In this document: positions 4,996 to 58,859 of the stretch, piece by piece
How positions within the stretch are numbered: position 1 is the first letter of the stretch
How the letters are laid out: the number at the start of each line of letters is the position of its first letter
Assembly: GCA_038046465.1 (NCBI GenBank)
Contig: JBBSWB010000041.1
Coordinates: forward strand, 1 to 58,865
Reading direction: 5' to 3'
Source of the DNA: Nanobdellota archaeon
Lineage (GTDB): Archaea > Nanobdellota > Nanobdellia > Woesearchaeales > GW2011-AR9
Length of the DNA: 58,865 nucleotides
Notes under the pieces: generated by a model
Told to the model about the DNA's origin: nothing
Databases searched by the model: none
The model's input: only the letters and a program-made list of their open reading frames with translations
Position numbers and translations under genes: made by a program

Positions 4996-5475
4996 TTATA
5001 TTTCCTGTTTCATGTCTAATTCTATGACCGAGTCAATTTTCCGGATCTCGTACTTGTCTTCTGCTAATGCAGTCATTAAGCCTTCTACATTTAAAAGCTT
5101 ACGAGAGAGCATGGCTAGTTGCGTATGGTAATGCCTGACTTCATCTCTATTCATTAATTCACCAGTGCTCCACCATTTCCATTGTTCCCGGACAGGATTC
5201 TGTCTAACTTGCTCTACTTCTCGACGTACGTGGTCCCTTAAATCAACTAAATTCATTAAGGTTTCGTCTATGCACCTTAAATGGGATTCCATTCTTTGGT
5301 CTTCGAAGTGGGTTCTGCAATCGTTCCCTGTTGGCTCGGATTGCACTAAGTGCACCGCTGAGCTGAACCTATTTTCAATCACGGCGTATAAACCGTCTCT
5401 CTGTAAGAGATTAGTGTTTTCGTCTACTAAAGCCAGGTATTCTGGCCGATTTGCGTCTTTACATGTTTTTTTCAT
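4996..5475 (-). CDS. Hypothetical protein (159 aa), compositionally atypical
   Basis: Intact ORF with a strong GGAGGAG Shine-Dalgarno about 8 nt upstream. It is visibly more GC-rich and more R/H/W-rich than its neighbours. Confidence 0.55.
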   Translation of the reverse strand: MKKTCKDANRPEYLALVDENTNLLQRDGLYAVIENRFSSAVHLVQSEPTGNDCRTHFEDQRMESHLRCIDETLMNLVDLRDHVRREVEQVRQNPVREQWKWWSTGELMNRDEVRHYHTQLAMLSRKLLNVEGLMTALAEDKYEIRKIDSVIELDMKQEI

Positions 5476-9941: not shown

Positions 9942-10082
9942 TGGACTTGGCGGGACTTTCGTGCAGCAAAATCTTTTTTGCTTGGTGGGCTTCAGCCCGC
10001 CGTACTTGCCTAGATTGCTGGCATTCGAACCCGCAGCCTTTCACATGCGAAGCGAACGCGATAGCCGTTTCGCCACAAGCCC
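9942..10082 (-). tRNA. tRNA-Ala (anticodon CGC) with a 68-nt intron in the T-loop (intron 9956..10023, position 59/60)
   Basis: Manual fold of the minus strand: GGGCTTG TG GCGA AACGGCTA TCGC G TTCGC TTCGCAT GTGAA AGGCT GCGGG TTCGAA [68 nt] T CCCGC CAAGTCC A. G3:U70 is present, and a helix-bulge-helix-bulge-helix motif sits at the junction. Confidence 0.85.
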
Positions 10083-25996: not shown

Positions 25997-26118
25997 AAAA
26001 ATCACCTTGGCCGCTCGTTCGGCCTATCCTAGCCAATAACTTTCGAAGGGATAGGACTTAATTTATTACTAAAGTATACATTCCCTCACTCGCCTCTTGG
26101 CCTAGGCGGTGATTTTTT
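25997..26118 (-). repeat. Structured hairpin repeat, copy A (family A/B/C; strand given relative to copy C)
   Basis: The reverse complement aligns along its whole length with 44606..44726. Stems are AAAAAATCACC/GGTGATTTTT, CCTAGGCC/GGCCAAGG and CCTATCC/GGATAGG. Confidence 0.7.
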
Positions 26119-38367: not shown

Positions 38368-38486
38368 GCCCCAGTAGCTTAGTGGCTATAGCACCTGACT
38401 TGTAGCCAACTATCTGCTATGTTTCCAACGAAATATAAGCATAGTAAGATATCAGGAGATCGGGAGTTCAACTCTCCCCTGGGGCT
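38368..38486 (+). tRNA. tRNA-Thr (anticodon TGT) with a canonical 46-nt intron at 37/38 (38405..38450)
   Basis: GCCCCAG TA GCTT AGTGGCTA TAGC A CCTGA CTTGTA [46 nt] A TCAGG AGATC GGGAG TTCAACT CTCCC CTGGGGC T. Central BHB helix CTTG/TAAG with 3-nt bulges. Confidence 0.9.
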
Positions 38487-44605: not shown

Positions 44606-44726
44606 AAAAGCCACCCGCCTGGCCAAGATGAGCGCGAGAGAATGTTTATTTTAATCAAAAATTAATTCCTATCCCTTTAAATTTTAATTGCAAGGATAGG
44701 TCGAGCGCTCGGCCAGGGTGGCTTTT
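44606..44726 (+). repeat. Structured hairpin repeat, copy C (family A/B/C)
   Basis: Stems are AAAAGCCACCC/GGGTGGCTTTT, CCTGGCC/GGCCAGG, GAGCGC/GCGCTC and CCTATCC/GGATAGG. Homologous to the reverse complement of 25997..26118. Confidence 0.7.
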
Positions 44727-44819
44727 GCGACCAGCTTAGACAGACTAATTCTACCTAAATATTTATAAAACCGATTAGGATTTTAATGACGTTAGTGCCA
44801 GTTGTTCACTCACGTTCAC

Positions 44820-44964
44820 GCCAGCGTCGCATAATTCGGTACTTTGCATAAGCAAAGGTTTACGCGAAGCGAAAAATTGCGCAGGTCTTGAAAACCTGTT
44901 CCTTCGGGAATTCTCGGTTCAAAGCCAGCAATCTAAATTGCTGATGAAATTCCGAGCGCTGGCG
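44820..44964 (+). tRNA. tRNA-Ser (anticodon TGA) with two introns: about 35 nt in the D-loop (about 44842..44876) and 27 nt in the T-loop at 59/60 (44924..44950)
   Basis: GCCAGCG TC GCA TAATTCGGTA [35] T TGC G CAGGT CTTGAAA ACCTG, long variable arm TTCC-TTCG-GGAA, then CTCGG TTCAAA [27] T CCGAG CGCTGGC G. Perfect hBHBh' at the T-loop junction. Confidence 0.8.
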
Positions 44965-44984
44965 CTTTTTATTTTCTAAAAGAA

Positions 44985-48523: not shown

Positions 48524-48530
48524 TTTCACA

Positions 48531-48548
48531 TTCACGCCAGCGTCGCAT
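48531..48548 (+). pseudogene. Orphan fragment of the tRNA-Ser 5' end (5-nt leader plus first 13 nt)
   Basis: TTCAC GCCAGCGTCGCAT is identical to 44815-44832 and 48595-48612, but no tRNA body follows. Confidence 0.6.
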
Positions 48549-48599
48549 CCACAGAGAAATAATTTCCCTGGGCGCGACTCAGCATTCACTCACGTTCAC

Positions 48600-48749
48600 G
48601 CCAGCGTCGCATAATCCGGTATTGCGGCAGTCTCGAACAGATCTTTACAATCGAAAGAAAACTGCTCCCTCTGGGATTCTCGGTTCAAACGAGAAACTGC
48701 GTTTCTTACCCAGAAAAACGCAGTTTTTCTGAATGTCCGAGCGCTGGCG
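48600..48749 (+). tRNA. tRNA-Ser (anticodon CGA) with two introns: 22 nt in the anticodon loop (about 48638..48659) and 46 nt in the T-loop at 59/60 (48690..48735)
   Basis: GCCAGCG TC GCA TAATCCGGTAT TGC G GCAGT CTCGAA [22] A ACTGC, variable arm TCCC-TCT-GGGA, then CTCGG TTCAAA [46] T CCGAG CGCTGGC G. A T-run follows. Confidence 0.8.
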
Positions 48750-48789
48750 CTTTTTATTTTTAAAAAAAAGCTAACCTTTCAAAATAAAG

Positions 48790-50385: not shown

Positions 50386-51891
50386 ATGAAGCTAACTGCG
50401 CCATTATTGTCCGTTCTGGCTTTAGGCTGTGCTGGACTACCGGGCAATATTTCTTTACCAGAAGTTTATACTAATTTAGTTTGTTCTGAAGAAACCCGAA
50501 TGCTGGAAGAAGCAGTAAATCAAGAAGCAAAAAAGAATGAAAACATTTACGAATGTAAAGTCGATACTACTAATTTTTTTATCCCAGAAGTATTGGGCTG
50601 CTCGGTTAATGCGGGATTATATTTTTCTGGTGAAGAACCTTTTGTGGATCAAGAGCAACGGGAACGATATGGGATGTTTTATACTTTTGAACCTTATCCG
50701 GAACGGATAGATCATTACCAACAAGCAGTAGAAAGAAAAAATGGTGCAGAAACGCCTAAATTAGATTTTAAGTTGAGCATGGGTAGTTATTATACGACTT
50801 CAGCAAATTTAAAACAAATTGAAACCTTACAGAAAAAAGAAAAACGCAGTAAATACGAAGAGCAGCTGTTAAAAAGCTTAGCAGAAAAAGTGGCCCGGGT
50901 TAAGGAGATCCAAACTATTCTTAGCTGGGAAGGATTTTATCAAAAAGAAATTAACGGAGTTTATCCGCAGAAATCTGTCCGAGATTACCAACGCTTTCAC
51001 CATTTGCCTGCCCACGGATGGATGGATTTAGAAACTAAACAACAGATGATTATGCCTTTAGAACAACAGGTTTTTCCGGAGCGGCAGAATATCTTACATA
51101 TTTTAGAAGAACGGGTCTTTCATGCCCAATGCCGCATTAATGAACGTGAAGTTTATCCCTATGTAATTGAAGATGCTGCCTTGGATAAGCTAGTAAGTTC
51201 GGCTGCAGAACAATTAGGATTGGATTCGATTAAAGGAACGGCTGATTTTTTTAAAAATGATCCGGGAGAAGTTACCGTGCAGCTGAAGATTCCTGGACGT
51301 TATGTTCAAGAAACCATGAGTTTAGAAATGCAGGTGATTAAATCTAAAAAAGATCGCTCCAAAACTTCTTTCACTTTATATGCTTGGGAAGATGGGGAAG
51401 AGATTGAACTGTTTAAAAGAAGAGCAGTAGTGGGCGGTCCGCACAAAGTCTTTGGGGTAAAAAAAGAATTTGATACTCCCGCCGGAGAAGCTTATTTAAA
51501 ACGGGTAGTGGTGATGCCTCACTGGAATCCGCCTGCTTGGTCCAAAGAAAAGTATGGTGAAGTAAGCACTGTACCGGGCCCTTTAAACGCCTATGGTATG
51601 TTTATGACTGAATTATATTACAGCGATAAAATTCCTAAAGACCCTTATGTTTGGTATATGGACGGAGATTTAGGATTTCGATTACATTTAACCGCTAGTC
51701 CGGGAAGTGTGGAAGGCGGTTATGGTAAATCCCACGGATGTGTAAGATTACATCCTACGGACGGGAGCAGGGTGTTTTATTTTATGTTACGATATACGCC
51801 GCATTTACCGATGAAAGAACTGTTTAAGAAAGGCGAGATTATTCCGTTCGTACCCGGAGAAATGATTAAGGTCAGGATTAAGGAGAAGTGA
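50386..51891 (+). CDS. L,D-transpeptidase (YkuD) domain lipoprotein with peptidoglycan-binding-like domain
   Basis: Lipobox LSVLALGC. PG_binding_1-like segment GFYQKEINGVYPQKSVRDYQRFHHLPAHGWMDLETKQQM. Catalytic motif GKSHGCVRL. Confidence 0.8.
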   Translation: MKLTAPLLSVLALGCAGLPGNISLPEVYTNLVCSEETRMLEEAVNQEAKKNENIYECKVDTTNFFIPEVLGCSVNAGLYFSGEEPFVDQEQRERYGMFYTFEPYPERIDHYQQAVERKNGAETPKLDFKLSMGSYYTTSANLKQIETLQKKEKRSKYEEQLLKSLAEKVARVKEIQTILSWEGFYQKEINGVYPQKSVRDYQRFHHLPAHGWMDLETKQQMIMPLEQQVFPERQNILHILEERVFHAQCRINEREVYPYVIEDAALDKLVSSAAEQLGLDSIKGTADFFKNDPGEVTVQLKIPGRYVQETMSLEMQVIKSKKDRSKTSFTLYAWEDGEEIELFKRRAVVGGPHKVFGVKKEFDTPAGEAYLKRVVVMPHWNPPAWSKEKYGEVSTVPGPLNAYGMFMTELYYSDKIPKDPYVWYMDGDLGFRLHLTASPGSVEGGYGKSHGCVRLHPTDGSRVFYFMLRYTPHLPMKELFKKGEIIPFVPGEMIKVRIKEK

Positions 51892-52004: not shown

Positions 52005-52586
52005 ATGAATAATAATCTAAAGATACTAAAACTGTTTGTGGACAACAAAGACAAAACCTTCACCATAAAGAAGGCAGCCGAAGCACTAAAAATAAATTAT
52101 AAAATTGTTTACGAAGAGATAACAGAATTGGAAAAAGAAAAATTAATTTCAATAACCAGGCAGGGAAATGCTAAAGTCTGTGTTTTTAATTACCAATACC
52201 ACAGTAAGATTGTTGAAATTGAAGAAATCCGAAAGCAGGAATTATTTAAAAATAAAGATTTGAAATTGATTTATAACCGAATCAAAGAAGTTAAAAACCC
52301 TTTTTATTGCTTAGTTCTTTTCGGCTCTTATGCCAACAAAACTAATCAAAAAGGGTCTGATATTGATCTATGCTTAATTACTGACAACTCTAAAATTAAC
52401 CGCCAAGTTCAGTCGATTTTAAGTATAACTCCTTTGCCAATTCACCTGCAAGAATTTAGTTCGAAGCAGTTTTTGCTCATGCTCAAAAGCAAAGAAGTTA
52501 ATGTTGGCAACGAAATAGTTAAAAATAATGTCCTTTTATACGACATGGAAGCATTTTACGAATTGATAAACAATGTTAAGCAATGA
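52005..52586 (+). CDS. wHTH-fused minimal nucleotidyltransferase (MNT-type antitoxin-like)
   Basis: LFGSYANKTNQKGSDIDLCLI NTase signature, with an N-terminal wHTH. Confidence 0.75.
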   Translation: MNNNLKILKLFVDNKDKTFTIKKAAEALKINYKIVYEEITELEKEKLISITRQGNAKVCVFNYQYHSKIVEIEEIRKQELFKNKDLKLIYNRIKEVKNPFYCLVLFGSYANKTNQKGSDIDLCLITDNSKINRQVQSILSITPLPIHLQEFSSKQFLLMLKSKEVNVGNEIVKNNVLLYDMEAFYELINNVKQ

Positions 52587-53094
52587 ACGGATAAAAGAAG
52601 CACAACAGCAGGTTTCAACCTATCTTGCAGAAGGTTTGCTCAAAAAAGAAAAGGTTAAGAGAATAGTCTTGGAAACTTATCTTAAAAACCATCGGGAATC
52701 TTTGTTAGTGGCCAGGAAACTATTTGATGAAAAAATATCTAATCTTTGGGTGGTGGTCATCAGTTATTATTCTATGTTCTACCTAGCCAATGCTTTGTTG
52801 TATAAAATAGGATATAAAGTCGGCTCAAAAGTTGCACACAAAGTTACTTCAGATGCGCTGATTGTTTTAGTAAGGAATAAGCTGAAAGACCAGCTCATTG
52901 AAGATTATGAATTGGCCAGCAATGAAGCCTTAACCCTTTCTGATAATCTGTTGCAAAATTTTGATTTGGAAAGAGCAAAGCGTTCTGTCTTCCAGTACGA
53001 ATCGACGGAGGAAATAAAAGCTGCTAAAGCAAAAACTTCTTTAGATCGGGCGGAAGAATTCAGTGTTAAAATAGAAAAACTGCTCCTAGACTGA
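52573..53094 (+). CDS. HEPN-domain protein (partner of 52005..52586)
   Basis: All-helical, 173 aa. It overlaps the upstream NTase gene by 14 nt. It resembles 53798..54271 (YYSMFY/YYSMYH, conserved His). Confidence 0.6.
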   Translation: MLSNERIKEAQQQVSTYLAEGLLKKEKVKRIVLETYLKNHRESLLVARKLFDEKISNLWVVVISYYSMFYLANALLYKIGYKVGSKVAHKVTSDALIVLVRNKLKDQLIEDYELASNEALTLSDNLLQNFDLERAKRSVFQYESTEEIKAAKAKTSLDRAEEFSVKIEKLLLD

Positions 53095-53131
53095 AAGAAT
53101 GATTTAAATATTCTAAAATAATTCTAATCTT

Positions 53132-53794
53132 ATGATAAAAGCAGTGCTATTTGATTTGGATAATACTTTAATAGATTTTATGGTGATGAAAAGACGGTGC
53201 ACTGAAGCAGCCGTTTCGGCGATGATTGATGCTGGTTTAGGAATGAGTAAGAAAAAAGCGTATACTTTAATGTTTGAGCTGTATGAACGGCACGGCATTG
53301 AAGACAGCACCATTTATCAGAAATTTCTGCAGAAATATGTTCACAAAGTTGATTATAAAATATTATCTGCCGGAGTAGTGGCCTATAGAAAGGTTCGGGC
53401 GGCGCAGTTGGTTCCCTATCCGCAGGTGCGGGCGACGTTAATTGCTTTGAAAAGTAAAGGGTTAAAATTAGGAGTAGTTTCCGATGCGCCTAAGATGCAG
53501 GCCTGGTTAAGATTAACCGAAATGAGTTTAGTAGAATTCTTTGATGTGGTGTTGGGCTTTGAAGATACCGGCGAATTAAAACCATCTTCAGCTCCGTTTA
53601 AGAAAGCGTTGTTACGAATGAAAGTTAAAGCTTCTGAAGTAGTGTTTATTGGTGACAATCCGCATCGGGATATTGTTGGCGCAAAGAAAGTAGGCATGAA
53701 GACGGTGTTGGCTAAGTATGGCGGATGTAAGAGTAAGAGCGGAGCGGATTGGGAGATTAAGGGAATTGGAGAGTTATTGAAGATAGTGAAATAA
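53132..53794 (+). CDS. HAD-superfamily hydrolase (subfamily IA-like)
   Basis: DLDNTL motif I, S/T motif II (VVSDAP), and K...GDN..D motifs III/IV. Confidence 0.85.
   Translation: MIKAVLFDLDNTLIDFMVMKRRCTEAAVSAMIDAGLGMSKKKAYTLMFELYERHGIEDSTIYQKFLQKYVHKVDYKILSAGVVAYRKVRAAQLVPYPQVRATLIALKSKGLKLGVVSDAPKMQAWLRLTEMSLVEFFDVVLGFEDTGELKPSSAPFKKALLRMKVKASEVVFIGDNPHRDIVGAKKVGMKTVLAKYGGCKSKSGADWEIKGIGELLKIVK
53746..53790 (+). repeat. Direct repeat, copy 1 (functional 3' end of the HAD gene)
   Basis: GGATTGGGAGATTAAGGGAATTGGAGAGTTATTGAAGATAGTGAA recurs, decayed, at 54836-54886. Confidence 0.8.
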
Positions 53795-53797
53795 AAT

Positions 53798-54271
53798 CTA
53801 TTGTAATCTCTTTACAGTTTTAGAACGATATTCCTTAATTTTGTCTTCAGTTAGGTTTTCTGTAAAATTATTAATCTCAATAATAAACTCCTCTGCAATA
53901 TGTATTGATTTCATTACTTCTTCTTTGGTAATAGCAAAGTCAATGTAATACTGTTTATCAACCCTTTCGCTTTTTGCTTTAGAAATCACCGCATTATCCA
54001 AATTAAAAATTTCTTTAAGCAGTATTATGGCGGCAGTGTGGTTTTCGCATTTGATTCCGCTGCGGAAGAGCAGAGATAAAAGCGCGTGATACATAGAGTA
54101 ATAAGCTAAAGCAACAGAATCCTTTAGATTGCCAATCTTTAGAAGAGCCTTGGCTGAAGAAAGTGATTCCTGTGCGCGCTGTAGATAAGCTATCCTCATT
54201 TCTTCGCTTGGTTCAACTACCTGCAGCTTCTTTTCCTTGGCTAATTTATGCAAAAAATCTGTTTTTCTCAT
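53798..54271 (-). CDS. HEPN-domain protein
   Basis: Helical, 157 aa, with a YYSMYHA...ENHTAAI pattern. It overlaps the upstream NTase by 26 nt. Confidence 0.65.
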   Translation of the reverse strand: MRKTDFLHKLAKEKKLQVVEPSEEMRIAYLQRAQESLSSAKALLKIGNLKDSVALAYYSMYHALLSLLFRSGIKCENHTAAIILLKEIFNLDNAVISKAKSERVDKQYYIDFAITKEEVMKSIHIAEEFIIEINNFTENLTEDKIKEYRSKTVKRLQ

Positions 54272-54803
54272 AATATACTTCTATCCCTTTGATGAGGAGA
54301 TGGTTCTTTTCAATTTCTTTAATCAAAAGATTGCTTGGATCGTAAAGGCCGATTTTTACGCTGAGTTTGGAATCAAGCAGCTCTACTTCTTCTTTGAGTT
54401 TTTTATCTTTGGTTTCTAAGTAAAGATCTATATCGCTGTCTTTATGCGCAGTTCCTTTGGCATAAGAGCCAAAGATTAGGGCCAAAGTAATTTTAGGATT
54501 TTTTCTGATGTTTTCAGTAATTAAACGCAACCGAGGATATTTTTGCAGCGCTTCTTTAAGTTTGTGCAACTCTGCAATATAAGCATATTGTTTTGCCTCT
54601 AGGGTTTTTTTAAGATGAAAAACTTTGTTTTTACCTTCCATTTGGAAATCTGCAGCATTTTCTTGATATAATTCCTTGGTTTTTCTGGCAATAGTGGTCT
54701 GGTTGGTGTTGAGTTCTTTGGCCAGCCCTCTCACGTGGTTCTCTTTTTTTAACAGCGCTTCCACAATTTGTATTTTGTAATCTTTTTGTGACATATGTAA
54801 CAT
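54246..54803 (-). CDS. wHTH-fused minimal nucleotidyltransferase (MNT-type)
   Basis: IFGSYAKGTAHKDSDIDLYLE NTase signature, with an N-terminal wHTH. Confidence 0.75.
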   Translation of the reverse strand: MLHMSQKDYKIQIVEALLKKENHVRGLAKELNTNQTTIARKTKELYQENAADFQMEGKNKVFHLKKTLEAKQYAYIAELHKLKEALQKYPRLRLITENIRKNPKITLALIFGSYAKGTAHKDSDIDLYLETKDKKLKEEVELLDSKLSVKIGLYDPSNLLIKEIEKNHLLIKGIEVYYEKNRFFA

Positions 54804-54835
54804 AATTATGACAAAGTATATAAAGGTTTGGATAT

Positions 54836-54886
54836 GGATTGGCTGGGAGATTAAGGGAGTTGTGAAGAGTTATTGAAGATAGTGAA
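54836..54886 (+). repeat. Direct repeat, copy 2 (decayed relic of the HAD gene 3' end)
   Basis: GGATTGGCTGGGAGATTAAGGGAGTTGTGAAGAGTTATTGAAGATAGTGAAGAG. Indels break the HAD reading frame. Confidence 0.8.
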
Positions 54887-54945
54887 GAGTTAAGTAGGCA
54901 TACCTTTATAAATATCTATACCTTTTAGACATCAGTTGATATAAA

Positions 54946-55257
54946 ATGGGAACTCAAACAGCACAATACCAAGATACTGAACTTCAAATTGTAAAAAGCC
55001 ATAAAACTAAGCGTTATCCTAATTTGAATACTGTTCTGATGGTCGAAAATTTTCTTAAAGCAAAGAGAGATTTGCCGCTAAAACTTGCAGAAATTAAAAA
55101 ACAATTGCCTAAAAAAATAATGCATGAGACTTTAAAAATAATTTTAGAATACCTTTGGAAAAGCGGCAAAATAATTTATGGCCCGAAAGGAGTGCAATGG
55201 ATTTATGTTGAACCGGAACATTTAAGAAAGATGCTCGAAAACACCTTAGAAATATAA
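54946..55257 (+). CDS. Putative antitoxin/wHTH protein upstream of the RelE-like toxin
   Basis: 103 aa. Its stop lies 1 nt before the toxin start. Confidence 0.45.
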   Translation: MGTQTAQYQDTELQIVKSHKTKRYPNLNTVLMVENFLKAKRDLPLKLAEIKKQLPKKIMHETLKIILEYLWKSGKIIYGPKGVQWIYVEPEHLRKMLENTLEI

Positions 55258-55258
55258 A

Positions 55259-55600
55259 ATGTATTTGGGCAAAGATGTTCGGATTCTGTTAAAAGGTTCT
55301 GCTAAAGATAGTTTTTTAGAATTAAAGAAGCGCCAGGATAAAGAAGCACAGATCTTGATAAAATCTGTGGAAAGAATAATTCTTATTTTAAAAGATAACC
55401 CTCTTTATGGCGATCCTATTAATAAAACTTTAATTCCTGAAGTATTCCGGAAAGAAGGAATTAAAAACCTTTATCGAGTGGAATTATCTAATTATTGGAG
55501 AATGATTTATACCATTGAAGGGAGTAATGTAGAAATATTTTTATTTGTCTTAAGTCTGGTTGATCATAAAAAATATAATAAAATGTTTGGGTATAAATAA
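55259..55600 (+). CDS. RelE/ParE-superfamily toxin-like protein
   Basis: C-terminal LYRVELSNYWRMIYTIEGSNVEIFLFVLSLVDHKKY matches the RelE-fold pattern (..R...YR.IY.I......I.....H..Y). Confidence 0.6.
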   Translation: MYLGKDVRILLKGSAKDSFLELKKRQDKEAQILIKSVERIILILKDNPLYGDPINKTLIPEVFRKEGIKNLYRVELSNYWRMIYTIEGSNVEIFLFVLSLVDHKKYNKMFGYK

Positions 55601-55641
55601 ATTGTAATTAATTATATAAACTTCAACTTCTTTTCTAATAT

Positions 55642-56187
55642 ATGCTTCAATCTTTGGAAGAAAAACAGGAATTATTGCAAAAGTCAGAAGTTAGCCTGTG
55701 GATTGACCACTATGATGATATTTTTTCTGACTTTGATCCCCGCCCTTATTCCCAGCGCGGCCTTTCCGATGACTTTTTGATTGAAGCTAAAAAATTTATT
55801 AAAGAAAAGGCTTCGGGAAGCTTTGAATTAATTTTTTTAGTACCTGAACTGATGAGAAAACCTGAATCTGAAGGTATTATCAAGAAACGCCTGCGTGAGC
55901 ATTTTAAAAAACACCACCTGTTATTAAAACATGACATGGTTAAAATAAAAAAGAAAGGGATTGCTTTAGCTGCGGTGGGTATGCTGCTGATGTTTGCTGC
56001 TTATTTGGTAACTACGGTTGAACAGAATATGCTGATGAATTTAATTTTTATAATTCTTGAACCGAGCGGATGGTTTCTGGCTTTTATAGGGATGGAGCAT
56101 ATCTTCTATGAAACTAAAGGGAAAACACCTGATTTAGAATTCTACACCAAGATGAGTAGATGCGAGATTAAGTTCAGGAGTTATTGA
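55642..56187 (+). CDS. Membrane protein (two C-terminal TM helices)
   Basis: 181 aa with hydrophobic segments GIALAAVGMLLMFAAYLV and LIFIILEPSGWFLAFIGM. Confidence 0.55.
   Translation: MLQSLEEKQELLQKSEVSLWIDHYDDIFSDFDPRPYSQRGLSDDFLIEAKKFIKEKASGSFELIFLVPELMRKPESEGIIKKRLREHFKKHHLLLKHDMVKIKKKGIALAAVGMLLMFAAYLVTTVEQNMLMNLIFIILEPSGWFLAFIGMEHIFYETKGKTPDLEFYTKMSRCEIKFRSY
56121..56187 (+). repeat. Direct repeat, copy 1 (3' end of membrane protein gene)
   Basis: GAAAACACC.GATTTAGA...GATGAGTAGATGCGAGATTAAGTTCAGGAGTTATTGA recurs at 58061-58120 with a 7-nt indel. Confidence 0.85.
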
Positions 56188-56218
56188 TTTGAAAAGAAGG
56201 TTTGTATTTATAAGAGGT

Positions 56219-57058
56219 TTATTTCTTTTCTATTTTCTTCTTTTTAGTTAAATCCAAGTAATTTTCAGGAGACACTATTTTTATTCCAAAAGTGGTTTCC
56301 GCGTCTTTCCTGGCTCGTCCGGCTACTTCACCGCCTTCTTTTGCTGCATCTAAGTTTTCTGTAAATCCTTGTGCATCCTTCTTGCGTGTAGCCTCAGTAC
56401 TGAGCCTTTCTCCTAACATAGAAAAAATGAGCTCCAAATCATTCATATGGTCGCGTAGATTTTGATTCTTAAACTTTGGATCTAAACCTTTAATTTCTTT
56501 ATGCTCTTTTATAGGTATTCCGAAAGTTGCTTTACTAATTTCATTGGTAAGAATAGCAAATTCTCGCTGTTCTTCAACGCCTCTTTTTTTCCATTCATCA
56601 GTAAGCTCTTGCCGAATGGCAATTCCTCTAAGCCGTTTGTCAATCCAATCTTTAGGATAGCCTTTGAGTTCATAATATCCTTTGGCTCGGTCTTGGGCTA
56701 ATTCTGGATTTTCTATTTCTTGAATTCGTTCGTAGCCTACTTGGGCTAACCATTGCTTAAATGGTTCAGCTTTCTTAGAAGGGATGGATTGAATTATTCT
56801 AAACATATTTTTGGTGTTAGCACAATCTGTAAGATAGGATTTACCATCAGAAGCAAGTAATTTCAGTTGGTTACAATTTGTAACCACCTCGCTTCCTTCC
56901 TCAGTGAGGCGGTATTTAAGTACCTTCCAATAATTTCTAGGGTTATCACTATCACTTAATACTCTAATTACATCAACTACTGAAAACCACCACTCTTCGT
57001 TGCGCCAAACCCTGCGGATGCTTTTTCCTTCAAAAACAGCTAATGAATTATTTTCCAT
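56219..57058 (-). CDS. Bro-N domain / DinD-like (DNA-damage-inducible protein D-like) protein
   Basis: N-terminal FEGKSIRRVWRNEEWWFSVVDVIRVL is a Bro-N pattern common in viruses and prophages. Confidence 0.65.
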   Translation of the reverse strand: MENNSLAVFEGKSIRRVWRNEEWWFSVVDVIRVLSDSDNPRNYWKVLKYRLTEEGSEVVTNCNQLKLLASDGKSYLTDCANTKNMFRIIQSIPSKKAEPFKQWLAQVGYERIQEIENPELAQDRAKGYYELKGYPKDWIDKRLRGIAIRQELTDEWKKRGVEEQREFAILTNEISKATFGIPIKEHKEIKGLDPKFKNQNLRDHMNDLELIFSMLGERLSTEATRKKDAQGFTENLDAAKEGGEVAGRARKDAETTFGIKIVSPENYLDLTKKKKIEKK

Positions 57059-57168
57059 GTTATTTCTGCAACTTAGAAGCTATATAAACCTTACGTGCAC
57101 CTGTCCAGTGGGTGTGTGGTTTAGATTAGAACATAATGTTTCTGTTGGCATAATGGTTATTAAGATAA

Positions 57169-57399
57169 TTGATGTGCTCAGTAATTATGAAGAAAACACG
57201 AGAAAAATATCTTTCTTTGCCAAAAAAAGTAGAAATAAAACCAGAAACATTAGGTTTGCCGGCTAATTTGCGTGAAATTTTTGGAAGTAAAAACTGGGAT
57301 GAACTAAGTAAAAAGAACCAAACTTATTTTATTTTTGGGCAATTGCTTAAGGAAGGTAATTTCATTTTGACTGGAGAAGGGAAAGTGGTGAGAATTTGA
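57169..57399 (+). CDS. Hypothetical small protein (76 aa)
   Basis: Intact ORF overlapping the next ORF by 4 nt. Confidence 0.4.
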   Translation: MMCSVIMKKTREKYLSLPKKVEIKPETLGLPANLREIFGSKNWDELSKKNQTYFIFGQLLKEGNFILTGEGKVVRI

Positions 57400-58019
57400 G
57401 CATATGCTGGATTAATCATTTTCCGGATGAAGCGCCATTGATTCTGATTAACGATACTGGGCTTTATTTTGAAAAAATATTGGCATATGAAAAAAAGTTT
57501 ATAGAAAAAATATTTAAACTAGATTTAGAAAAAGATATCATAAAATATCCTGCTTACGAAGAAGCTTTGAAAATAATTCCAGAGATAATCAAAACTAAAA
57601 AGATGGTTATTTTAGGCCCAACCCAACATAAAGAAATTGGGTTTTTCTCTACTTATTTCCCAATAGTTAAATTCCCGGTTGTAATGGACTTTATTATTAA
57701 AGAGTTTGTTCATGACCAAATGGCAACTTATGATGAAGAAAAAATATTAGCTGCTGCAGAAAAATCAGATCGATACAAATGGCTGACTTTATTTGTTTTT
57801 GGAAGAATACATCAAGAGCTTAAGTTAAATCCTTCTTATTTATACACTAATGGTTCAATTGAAACGGTTTGGCAATATTATGATTTAAACGGATTGTCAT
57901 TGAAAGAAACAAAAAAATATCTTTTGTTAGCCAAAGAATTCGATAACAAAATATTTTTGGAGTTGGCAGCCAGCGAACTGCTGGGAAAGGAAACTCCTGC
58001 AGTTAAACTAATAAGATAA
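57396..58019 (+). CDS. Hypothetical protein (207 aa, TTG start)
   Basis: Intact ORF coupled to the upstream gene. No motif recognised. Confidence 0.45.
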   Translation: MSICWINHFPDEAPLILINDTGLYFEKILAYEKKFIEKIFKLDLEKDIIKYPAYEEALKIIPEIIKTKKMVILGPTQHKEIGFFSTYFPIVKFPVVMDFIIKEFVHDQMATYDEEKILAAAEKSDRYKWLTLFVFGRIHQELKLNPSYLYTNGSIETVWQYYDLNGLSLKETKKYLLLAKEFDNKIFLELAASELLGKETPAVKLIR

Positions 58020-58020
58020 T

Positions 58021-58058
58021 TTTATACAATAATTGTACCTATTTATACAATAATTGTA
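58021..58058. repeat. Tandem 17-mer TTTATACAATAATTGTA x2 (21-nt period), each containing the near-palindrome TACAATAATTGTA
   Basis: Read directly from the sequence, immediately left of direct-repeat copy 2. Confidence 0.8.
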
Positions 58059-58060
58059 TA

Positions 58061-58120
58061 GAAAACACCCGATTTAGAGTCGAGATGAGTAGATGCGAGA
58101 TTAAGTTCAGGAGTTATTGA
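58061..58120 (+). repeat. Direct repeat, copy 2 (relic of the membrane protein gene 3' end)
   Basis: See 56121..56187. Confidence 0.85.
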
Positions 58121-58228
58121 GTGAACCTGGAAGTAAACCAGATTGACCAGTCTAAAAAGAGTACGATAATAGGTGTGCGGGAGCTCTAATCTTCCAAAAC
58201 TTAATTTCCTCATCGCAACATTTATAAA

Positions 58229-58247
58229 CGTTACCAAATTGGTAACG
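58229..58247. promoter_or_regulatory. Perfect palindrome CGTTACCAA-A-TTGGTAACG abutting a TATA box (TTTATAAA 58221-58228)
   Basis: Read directly from the sequence, just upstream of the third HTH-NTase gene. Confidence 0.5.
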
Positions 58248-58259
58248 ATTGTTATTAAA

Positions 58260-58859
58260 ATGATGCCATTAATCAAAACGGGATATTGGAAAATTATGCA
58301 GCTCTTTTATACTAATAAGGTTACAAAGATGCATCTTAGGGAGATTTCCAGGAAAGCCAAGCTTCATGCGCCTAGCACGACCACTTTTTTAAAATCCCTG
58401 GAAAAAGATGGGGTATTGAAGTCAGAAAAAGATGGGAATCAGAAAAAATACTTCTTAAAACTAAATTATAAAACTTATGCTGTCTTTCAGCTCTTTGACT
58501 TAGAAAAACTTAATGCTCTCCCTAACATACGTAAGAATGCAATAAAATATTTCCTTGATTACCTCAAAGAAAAGCCTTTAATTGCTTTTGTTTTTGGTTC
58601 AACTGCAAAAGGAACCTTTAAAGAAGATTCCGATATAGATATCTTTATAATAACTAACTCTAAAATTAATACTGAAGAAGCTGAGAAGCATGCCGAAGCA
58701 TTGACTGGGATAAGGATCAGCACCTTCCAGATGAGGTTAGAACCTTTTTTGAAAGAAATAAAACTTAAAGAAGATCCAGTTATCCAGTCTGCCATAGCTT
58801 CCGGCTATCCGGTGCTGAATAATTTATATTATTACGAGATACTTTACAATGGACCTTAA
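58260..58859 (+). CDS. wHTH-fused minimal nucleotidyltransferase (third MNT-type gene)
   Basis: VFGSTAKGTFKEDSDIDIFIIT signature. The ATG at 58260 or 58296 is preferred over the track start at 58173, which would run through the promoter and palindrome. An overlapping ATG at 58850 opens a further ORF cut by the window edge, possibly the HEPN partner. Confidence 0.7.
   Translation: MMPLIKTGYWKIMQLFYTNKVTKMHLREISRKAKLHAPSTTTFLKSLEKDGVLKSEKDGNQKKYFLKLNYKTYAVFQLFDLEKLNALPNIRKNAIKYFLDYLKEKPLIAFVFGSTAKGTFKEDSDIDIFIITNSKINTEEAEKHAEALTGIRISTFQMRLEPFLKEIKLKEDPVIQSAIASGYPVLNNLYYYEILYNGP

Follow-up and report, generated by a model that had tools for sequence, protein, structure and literature searches.

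A HEPN/nucleotidyltransferase cassette at the duplicated 3' end of a HAD hydrolase gene in a DPANN archaeon, and a candidate route for its insertion

Toxin–antitoxin (TA) pairs are among the most mobile prokaryotic genes. To our knowledge, most of their chromosomal copies show no transposase, integrase or repeats, and how they move is largely unknown. How, then, does a two-gene cassette of this kind, with no recombinase of its own, come to stand between the end of a HAD-superfamily hydrolase gene and a second, decaying copy of that same end? The locus that raises this question is located in a 58,865-nt contig of a Nanobdellota archaeon (JBBSWB010000041.1, assembly GCA_038046465.1), the whole of which is called the window here. 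An original prediction, made from the letters of the window, held that an element had integrated into the 3' end of the HAD gene while carrying a replacement end. This proposal is borne out by an empty site in a related strain, by the inequality of the two copies and by homologous cassettes elsewhere that are flanked by the ends of other genes.

The target gene (53132..53794, + strand) encodes a hydrolase of 220 residues (Pfam HAD_2 8e-29, Hydrolase 8e-25) with 4422 homologs at E<=1e-40, mainly in DPANN archaea. Its final 45 nt, stopping 4 nt short of the stop (copy 1, 53746..53790, +), recur downstream within copy 2 (54830..54893, +). The predicted recurrence of 53746-53790 at 54836-54886 is accurate in its coordinates, as a repeat search, a blastn comparison of the window with itself and shuffled controls agree. 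The repeat search gives two blocks, 53750-53768/54844-54862 with 18/19 identical positions and 53767-53790/54863-54886 with 23/24, the latter containing 21 nt without a mismatch; the block offsets of 1094 and 1096 reveal a 2-nt insertion in copy 2. Further to the left both copies share GGATTGG, and copy 2 has four extra bases (CTGG), which together with the 2-nt insertion account for the lengths of 45 nt in copy 1 and 51 nt in copy 2. The blastn self-comparison reports a 43-nt repeat at 90.7% identity (E=2e-8). The window contains two exact copies of the 21-mer AGAGTTATTGAAGATAGTGAA and no more; none of 100 dinucleotide shuffles reached that number, even with up to 2 mismatches allowed. Translated in the frame of HAD, copy 2 meets a stop (GAT TGG CTG GGA GAT TAA), so the indels do destroy the frame as had been claimed. 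At each of the four differences between them, copy 2 has the derived state, yet it has kept the ancestral stop. The predicted extent was short on the right, since the remnant reaches AGT TAA at 54888-54893. Likewise, the lengths of 45 and 51 nt describe the repeat of today, while the original duplication was longer, about 145 nt as judged from a related contig (L121) described below.

Exactly one HEPN and nucleotidyltransferase pair occupies the interval on the opposite strand (HEPN 53798..54271, -; nucleotidyltransferase 54246..54803, -), again in agreement with the prediction, and the insert contains these two genes only and hence no recombinase. The left junction ATAAAAT (53791..53797, +) provides the stop codon that HAD now uses (53792-53794) and lies directly against that of HEPN on the minus strand (53798-53800). 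The HEPN-domain protein, the presumed toxin, has 157 residues (Pfam HEPN PF05168, 8e-11) and structural matches to PDB 9xbd (1.3e-5) and AF0298/2hsb (1.4e-4). Across 51 family members the residues GIKxENH and AKxERxDKQYY are invariant, and the canonical Rx4-6H motif is not conserved, as the arginine seven residues before the histidine varies. The presumed antitoxin is a winged helix-turn-helix (wHTH) protein fused to a minimal nucleotidyltransferase (MNT), with 182 residues from a conserved MSQ start (54246..54794, -) in an open reading frame (ORF) that extends to 54803. It matches Pfam Polbeta (7.9e-12) and NTP_transf_2 (1.2e-10) and, weakly, the MntA structure PDB 5yep (1.1e-4); its motif FGSYAKGTAHKDSDID (FGSYAKG…DSDID) follows the GS…DxD pattern, and its N-terminal ~80 residues give weak HTH matches. 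The two genes overlap by 26 nt on the same strand and share a single promoter upstream of MNT.

The control region of the cassette (54771..54829, -) was delineated by the repeat search and by comparison of 90 nt of upstream sequence from 45 family loci. The MNT start codon is covered by a palindrome (54771-54818) of the type TGTAACA…ATGTTACA, in a position conserved across the family. The B recognition element (BRE) and TATA box of the window read CCTTTATATAC (54816-54826 on the - strand), with the family-wide form aaagCTTTAAATA about 25 nt from the MNT start codon. At the cassette borders of these 45 loci no conserved motif was found beyond promoter and operator. Because it has its own BRE/TATA and a palindrome at the start codon, the cassette is transcriptionally autonomous and probably autoregulated. 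Its family comprises 1682 proteins at E<=1e-10 in DPANN archaea, the best non-self match being 73% identical. Described by its gene content, the insert is a compact, self-contained wHTH-nucleotidyltransferase/HEPN module of about 1.05 kb and of the HEPN/MNT toxin–antitoxin kind.

Among characterized systems, the module is most readily compared with the HepT/MntA (HEPN/MNT) type VII toxin-antitoxin modules, such as SO_3166/SO_3165 of Shewanella (PMC4621449, PMC7641770). In both, the nucleotidyltransferase gene precedes an overlapping HEPN gene in a two-gene operon and the GS…DxD motif is present, and the cassette proteins have a weak but specific similarity to MntA (5yep, 1e-4) and to the HEPN structures 9xbd and 2hsb. 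In contrast to HepT/MntA, the cassette nucleotidyltransferase adds an N-terminal winged helix, the HEPN motif of its family is GIKxENH, with no conserved canonical Rx4-6H, and the family, known here from sequence, is archaeal (DPANN) and closest to AF0298/UPF0332. From this homology we infer a toxin–antitoxin function, in which the nucleotidyltransferase would restrain the HEPN RNase and the pair would stabilize itself by addiction. The window holds three MNT-type modules, the other two being located at 52005-53094 and 58173-58859. The HEPN partner of the third nucleotidyltransferase (MNT3) is truncated, as seen in contig L001, and in contig L109 the cassette HEPN is split into 48 and 100 aa while MNT is intact; toxin appears to decay before antitoxin in these modules.

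What did the site look like before the cassette arrived? The relatives compared are short metagenomic contigs throughout, and their strain histories are mosaic. Seven contigs that are ~100% identical to the window (L001-L007) are all occupied, with no empty site among them; the window-identical contigs come from Hainich groundwater metagenomes and one metagenome-assembled genome. Two sources of the ancestral state were tried and discarded: L008, which has the nearest HAD match of a GTDB genome scan (79% aa), has an unrelated neighbourhood, and distant Iainarchaeum loci lack the adjacency of HAD and ORF181. An empty site was found in L014. Its HAD protein (P0002, 221 aa) is the closest homolog outside the population of the window, with 90% aa identity, and ORF181, a conserved DPANN membrane protein gene (55642..56187, + in the window), follows HAD directly, its homolog beginning 37 nt after the HAD stop. 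The L014 sequence aligns to the window over 53104-53791 and then jumps to 55611-56136, and because the alignment skips it, all window DNA between the two blocks is extra. P0002 ends in …GELMKIVKS, whereas the window protein ends in …GELLKIVK and is one residue shorter. The K-S-stop end of L014 is unlike the present HAD end and recurs at the right end of copy 2 (GTG AAG AGT TAA, 54882-54893); the present HAD gene ends in …GTG AAA TAA as against the ancestral …GTG AAG AGT TAA.

An intermediate state is preserved in L109, which was found through a member of the HAD protein cluster and has the order YkuD, Bro-N(-), HAD, [HEPN, MNT](-), ORF181. It is colinear with the window over 53104-54872 at 90% and then over 55611-56185, and so has the first cassette without the second one (described below), together with a degraded HAD-tail fragment after the cassette promoter. 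The fragments of L109 and of the window share the diagnostic GGCTGG and GTGTGAAGAG features. In L109 the fragment has suffered a 22-nt deletion between two GTGAAGAG repeats, and it runs on as CTAA|TCAAATATTATATAAACC…, a stop and intergenic DNA identical in kind to those of L014. Because of this continuation into L014-type intergenic DNA, the downstream copy is the original HAD end, still joined to the DNA that natively follows it. In L016 a Fic gene occupies the place between YkuD and HAD that is taken by Bro-N in L109. The YkuD gene itself encodes an archaeal L,D-transpeptidase (YkuD, 4e-13) with a peptidoglycan-binding domain (window 50386-51891, +), and it adjoins the hotspot in L016 and L109 too.

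These relatives also bear on the possibility that copy 2 is a functional repeat (a regulatory site, a terminator or a small RNA) or an integron-type attC. Copy 2 does sit between two divergent promoters, and archaeal integrons with TA cassettes have been reported (PMC9668308). Equal conservation of both copies in relatives, named in the original prediction as the sign of a functional repeat, is not what was found: the similarity of copy 1 to copy 2 in L109 is at noise (score 17), and the 22-nt deletion affects one copy. Because copy 2 has decayed in L109 and the copies are no longer alike, a functional repeat is excluded. Copy 2 is, moreover, absent from L014, and the segment 54804-54945 folds no better than shuffles on both strands (z +0.56 and +0.74). 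Cassettes with their own promoters and in both orientations, and the lack of an integron integrase among the window ORFs scanned, argue against attC as well, and we give this whole explanation a probability close to nil.

The original size of the displaced piece is indicated by L121. In both L120 and L121 the junction of HAD and cassette is the same as in the window, and the left junction is kept as AT(A/T)AAAT in L109 and L121. Beyond the cassette promoter, L121 can be aligned to HAD nt 518-555, and this holds for all four HAD alleles tested (scores 30-38 against shuffle maxima of 26-30). Because of this match, the displaced piece is placed as having once begun about 145 nt before the HAD stop. 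On these alignments it has since been shortened by internal deletions that differ between strains, and the CTGG 'insertion' of copy 2 may itself be a deletion junction. The join of cassette and fragment, …AAAGGTTTTG | CTGATAAAATCC compared with GTGTTTATTGGTGACAATCC in HAD, shows a few bases of microhomology.

The remainder of the extra DNA in the window is a second cassette (cassette B, 54894..55610, +), consisting of a 103-aa gene (54946..55257) and a ParE/RelE-like gene (55259..55600; ParE_like 0.004, a weak match). It is placed exactly after the ancestral HAD stop, is missing from L014 and L109 and is present in L019; on this distribution it is a later addition than the HEPN/MNT cassette. 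The aligned contigs show copy 2 to be an insertion scar, and the series runs from empty (L014) through cassette (L109, L121) to a further cassette (window). By the same alignments HAD has been left intact with an end from the cassette side (…GTGAA|ATAA, KIVK*), and its original end (…GTGAAGAGTTAA, KIVKS*) has been displaced. In another strain an insertion resembling a miniature inverted-repeat transposable element (MITE) lies between the HAD remnant and cassette B (L120:26-38 and L019:16-28, SRR22388314). Its terminal inverted repeats (GGCTCTGTCCTAA) match perfectly over 13 nt, the target is duplicated over 9 nt (TAATGTAGG), and each of the two contigs breaks off within the element. The interior starts like a hairpin element at window 25997-26109 (CCTAGGCCAAGAGGCG), and the inverted repeat is absent from the window.

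The HAD gene carries a further trace of events at its end. Between the window and the close strains L014, L109 and L016, its identity falls from 88-93% over nt 1-400 to 75-82% from nt 401 to the end, whereas against the outgroup L008 there is no drop until the last ~60 nt. By these identities the HAD tail has a history different from that of the rest of the gene.

Are gene-end duplications in this region peculiar to the cassette? A second such repeat involves ORF181, whose 3' end (56121..56187, +) has a downstream copy at 58061..58120 (+; self-blastn 67 nt, 85%, E=6e-15). The downstream copy has lost 7 nt in its left half, and its right 39 nt match the in-gene copy throughout and finish exactly at the stop TGA. 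These copies, 1.9 kb apart, flank Bro-N (56219..57058, -), o75 (57169..57399) and o207 (57396..58019) in the interval 56188-58060; in L016 the ORF181 homolog is directly followed by an MNT3-like gene, with no Bro-N block. L016 also carries the HAD start (-12 to +48) twice, at 1848-1907 and 5175-5234, as a 60-nt repeat (55/60) that flanks a 3.3-kb block of ORF183, an MNT3-like/HEPN pair, an 82-aa gene and Bro-N. L014, L016, L109 and the window have HAD, ORF181, MNT3(/HEPN3) and Bro-N in circularly permuted orders. A further fragment, of the HAD upstream region and 10 nt of coding sequence, lies at L017:2773-2812. At L001:15955-15985, about 1.1 kb past the 3' end of the window, is a third fragment like the HAD 3' end, GTGGATTGGGAGATTAAGGAGTTGTTAAATAA, with a 9-nt in-frame deletion. 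It follows MNT3 (window 58239..58859) and the 52-aa truncated HEPN and abuts a convergent gene, and it could be an older HAD-tail insertion or the remnant of a second HAD copy. Derived bases seemingly common to copy 2 and this fragment turned out on realignment to be an artefact, the fragment being a diverged HAD end.

Such fragments suggest another origin for copy 2, namely that it is what remains of a second HAD copy, made by segmental or tandem duplication and then cut down by deletions, with the cassette arriving separately. The permuted gene orders, the HAD 5' fragments in L016 and L017, the third fragment in L001 and the ORF181 3' fragment in the window are all of a piece with this. It would, however, require the deletion endpoints to match the cassette border here and at ~10 independent loci in other genomes, and L109 and L014 form a simple occupied and empty pair in which the fragment runs into native DNA. 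We therefore consider this origin very improbable.

The independent loci come from a survey of the cassette family at 80 metagenomic loci with members at 54-69% identity, in which the DNA to the left of the MNT start was aligned to the DNA to the right of the HEPN stop. With 400-nt flanks, 13 of 40 loci exceed the 99th percentile of the cross-locus null (31), and the window scores 67. With 150-nt flanks and duplicates removed, 11/36 non-redundant loci score >=30, as compared with 1.6% of 439 pseudo-cassettes in the survey loci (binomial p=7e-12) and 0.2% in window 1-50000; low-scoring matches in L024, L048 and L077 are A-rich and may be spurious. The repeats are always placed in the same way: one copy stops just outside the promoter, 28-57 nt ahead of the MNT start, and the other begins within 30 nt of the HEPN stop, which it overlaps in two loci. 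Their lengths vary (18, 27, 40, 45, 66 and ~145 nt), and the repeated sequences are mutually unrelated among the repeat-positive loci.

The genes thus duplicated are diverse, and the suggestion in the original prediction that the same cassette might be found flanked by other gene ends holds for homologous cassettes, far above controls. In L094/L096 the repeat is the 3' end of tRNA-Leu(TAG), perfect over 40 nt (40/40); in L062 it is the 3' end of a convergent gene (66 nt, 61/66), and in L072 the 3' end of a DegT aminotransferase gene. In L033 a perfect 18-nt repeat spans the stops of convergent tyrosine recombinase and FttA genes. Gene starts are used as well, that of a DNA ligase gene in L079 and that of an Eco57I-like restriction-modification gene in L064. 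In the seven cases of 3'-end repeats, which include both pairs in the window, the border lies -4 to +2 nt from the stop codon or tRNA end. No identical cassette was found in a second context: P0242, the closest non-self member (73%), and P0313, which is found on multiple contigs, each occur in one context only. Plasmid, phage and IMG/VR records contained no family members, only distant matches to the nucleotidyltransferase core at 27-38%. For the MNT1/HEPN1 module (52005-53094) and cassette B, no flanking repeats above noise were found.

Which process leaves such borders? The route that we favour, with moderate confidence, is a homology-dependent insertion-duplication that involves no cassette-encoded enzyme. 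DNA bearing the cassette beside a copy of the HAD tail, either a circle released by recombination between the flanking repeats or a piece of a relative's chromosome, would recombine with the HAD tail of the chromosome. One join would be homologous and the other, between the promoter end of the cassette and HAD nt ~515, illegitimate, with GTTT..TTG as microhomology. The resulting direct repeats would permit excision and re-entry by host recombination functions alone. An empty-site junction would then read …GATAGTGAAGAGTTAA followed by GTAGGCATACC or TCAAATATT, and a circle junction …AAAGGTTTG-GATATGG…GATAGTGAA-ATAAAATCTATTG. Homologous recombination is favoured because the duplication, at least about 145 nt, is long enough for it and too long for a stagger of the transposase type. 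No single site-specific enzyme could recognize the repeat sequences, which are all different, and a generic host-level route is suggested because the footprint recurs with other cargo (the Bro-N block, and the 3.3-kb block of L016) and in unrelated genomes. The drop in HAD identity past nt 400 between strains fits repeated import of the tail together with the variable region. No recombinase or transposase was found in the cassette or among the ~50 window ORFs, nearly all of those of >=100 aa, that were scanned against Pfam; the recombinase search that the original prediction had proposed for the genome was thus negative for these ORFs. Terminal inverted repeats were not found at the cassette ends. 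An insertion sequence, transposon or MITE was rejected as an identity for the cassette on the lack of such repeats, on the variable direct repeats of 18 to ~145 nt and on the absence of a transposase.

Several observations weigh against this route. No excised circle or recombination junction was seen for the HAD-tail cassette. The permuted gene order and the several fragments of HAD and ORF181 mean that segmental duplication and deletion also shaped the region. The regularity with which seven gene-3'-end repeats stop -4 to +2 nt from the end is more typical of an att site, and a perfect 40-nt repeat of a tRNA 3' end, as in L094, is classically the mark of a tyrosine integrase. A trans-acting recombinase is possible, as the source genome was examined over the 59-kb window only. 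The only circle-like object is a 1527-nt contig (L035, Ga0180438_10213450) with identical 99-nt ends, and thus a unit of 1428 nt, whose sole contents are a family MNT, a HEPN, a hairpin and an ORF of 56 aa; a tandem array or an assembly artefact would explain it equally well.

The main rival reading is a miniature integrative element that is moved by a site-specific (tyrosine) recombinase encoded elsewhere, with the repeats as attL and attR and an attP-like gene end on the cassette, in other words an archaeal counterpart of a cis-mobilizable element or an integrase-less satellite. Direct repeats of gene and tRNA ends with an empty site are exactly what integrases leave, and in 7 cases the borders are only a few nt from the gene end. 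A Phage_integrase gene (4.7e-41) stands immediately upstream of the L033 cassette, with homologs upstream in L023 and L060 (L033:3-512, L023:1-405, L060:20-256). In L033, however, this recombinase gene is itself the target, its 3' end being the one duplicated, and it is located outside the segment that the repeats bound. With repeat sequences that differ from locus to locus, many integrases would be needed for one cassette family, only about 10-30 nt outside the genes and promoter are available for arm sites, no recombinase was found among the ORFs scanned in the 59-kb window, and the original duplication was about 145 nt long. Mobilization by a recombinase in trans is in our view rather unlikely.

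Variable repeat lengths, from 18 to ~145 nt, would be expected if a linear cassette were instead captured at a staggered or resected double-strand break, where fill-in duplicates the target and only those events survive that regenerate the gene end. The microhomology at the junction of the cassette with HAD nt ~515 accords with this, as does the confinement of all differences to the non-functional copy, and in L033 and L072 the overlapping ends of two convergent genes are duplicated such that both genes are kept intact. A stagger of 145 nt is implausible, though, and selection alone would allow repeats to extend well past the stop, yet the borders lie at -4 to +2 nt; the present HAD stop is, besides, outside the duplicated sequence. 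Capture during break repair is accordingly held to be improbable, and insertion-duplication through homology remains the favoured route. Tentatively, and with distinctly less confidence, the wHTH-MNT/HEPN cassettes of DPANN archaea, possibly along with the Bro-N block and other small accessory modules, might be regarded more generally as enzyme-less mobile cassettes that carry a copy of a neighbouring gene's end, enter at gene termini by 'self-healing' insertion-duplication with host recombination alone and use the repeats as the site of excision and re-entry.

Integration at gene ends is not new in itself. In E. coli, e14 and phage 21 integrate in the 3' end of icd and bring a substitute end, with a duplication of ~165 nt. 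The arrangement here resembles that of these and of tRNA-integrating elements in its order of intact gene, element and displaced 3' fragment, in the gene end on the side of the element and in the existence of an empty site, and the cassette duplication of about 145 nt is near the ~165 nt of the icd case. Unlike the icd elements, the 1-kb cassette consists of a TA pair only, with no integrase, excisionase or other mobility gene, and related cassettes use unrelated targets, gene 5' ends included. Campbell-type insertion-duplication and homology-facilitated illegitimate recombination are familiar mainly from laboratory constructs and from the transformation of naturally transformable bacteria; we know of no description of insertion-duplication as a recurrent natural route of a TA cassette family in archaea. 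The locus shares with them a direct duplication that flanks the insert, one homologous and one microhomology join and the lack of an element-encoded enzyme.

The cis-mobilizable elements (CIMEs) of Firmicutes derive from or depend on integrative and conjugative elements (ICEs) or integrative and mobilizable elements (IMEs) with a known integrase and a common att site (PMC5704250; ICEberg 2.0, PMC6323972). The cassette is like a CIME in having att-like flanking repeats and no recombination genes, so that any mobility would be supplied in trans, but neither a helper nor a common att site was seen for it in the 59 kb, and the targets differ between family members. Integron cassettes (PMC9668308) are also small, often of the TA kind and stacked between core genes. 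The cassettes here differ in being without an attC hairpin or IntI, in having their own promoters and both orientations, and in that their repeats are gene ends and not 7-nt cores. An integron cassette had been rejected as an identity in its own right, given no attC-like fold, only 3 nt from the HEPN end to the HAD stop and no integrase found. In a literature search, no account was found of TA cassettes that have gene-end duplications as a recurring border.

The value of the locus is that one insertion can be traced from the empty site through the occupied one to a third state, with a second cassette added. The gene-end duplication recurs at about 30% of related cassettes in unrelated DPANN genomes, with non-TA cargo in the window and at a tRNA gene. 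For TA mobility this leads to a testable proposal, that of insertion-duplication at gene termini, which would spare flanking essential genes in genomes with little intergenic space. If the cassettes are indeed enzyme-less in their movement, a concrete general mechanism for the mobility of chromosomal TA pairs would be at hand, at least in ultra-compact genomes. The findings are relevant to TA mobility and to the genome dynamics of DPANN archaea, and the survey makes the mechanism testable. In addition, fragments of gene ends and gene starts can serve as markers of cassette borders, the fragmentation of assemblies around such loci is partly explained, and a core gene beside a hotspot is seen to differ in the history of its 3' third from the remainder of the gene.

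The wider window is a chromosomal segment, low in GC (about 36%), of a DPANN (Iainarchaeota-like) groundwater archaeon. It encodes FtsZ, EF-1α, EF-2, Spt5, S10, L7Ae, a proteasome subunit and FttA/aCPSF1, and among named organisms its genes are closest to those of DPANN archaea (Iainarchaeum, Diapherotrites, Woesearchaeota and Nanoarchaeota). Two classes of paralogous elements were encountered outside the hotspot. An element of ~113 nt has two copies with 77% identity, both intergenic (44611-44722, +, and 25997-26109, -), and folds into a long hairpin (4 compensatory pair changes) with a T run behind it. It has no Rfam match and could represent a small RNA or the central part of a mobile hairpin element. 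Elements of ~170 nt lie at 44805-44984 and 48585-48768, with a partial third 5' copy near 48525-48550. Their 5' and 3' ends are conserved (97% and 90%) around a variable interior with compensatory changes, with an 11-bp terminal stem and a T run; they too have no Rfam match and look like paralogous non-coding RNAs. ARAGORN reported only tRNA-Ala at 10011-10081 in the window and missed a 119-nt tRNA at 38368-38486 (+), which is recognized by Rfam with 57 bits and presumably contains an intron.

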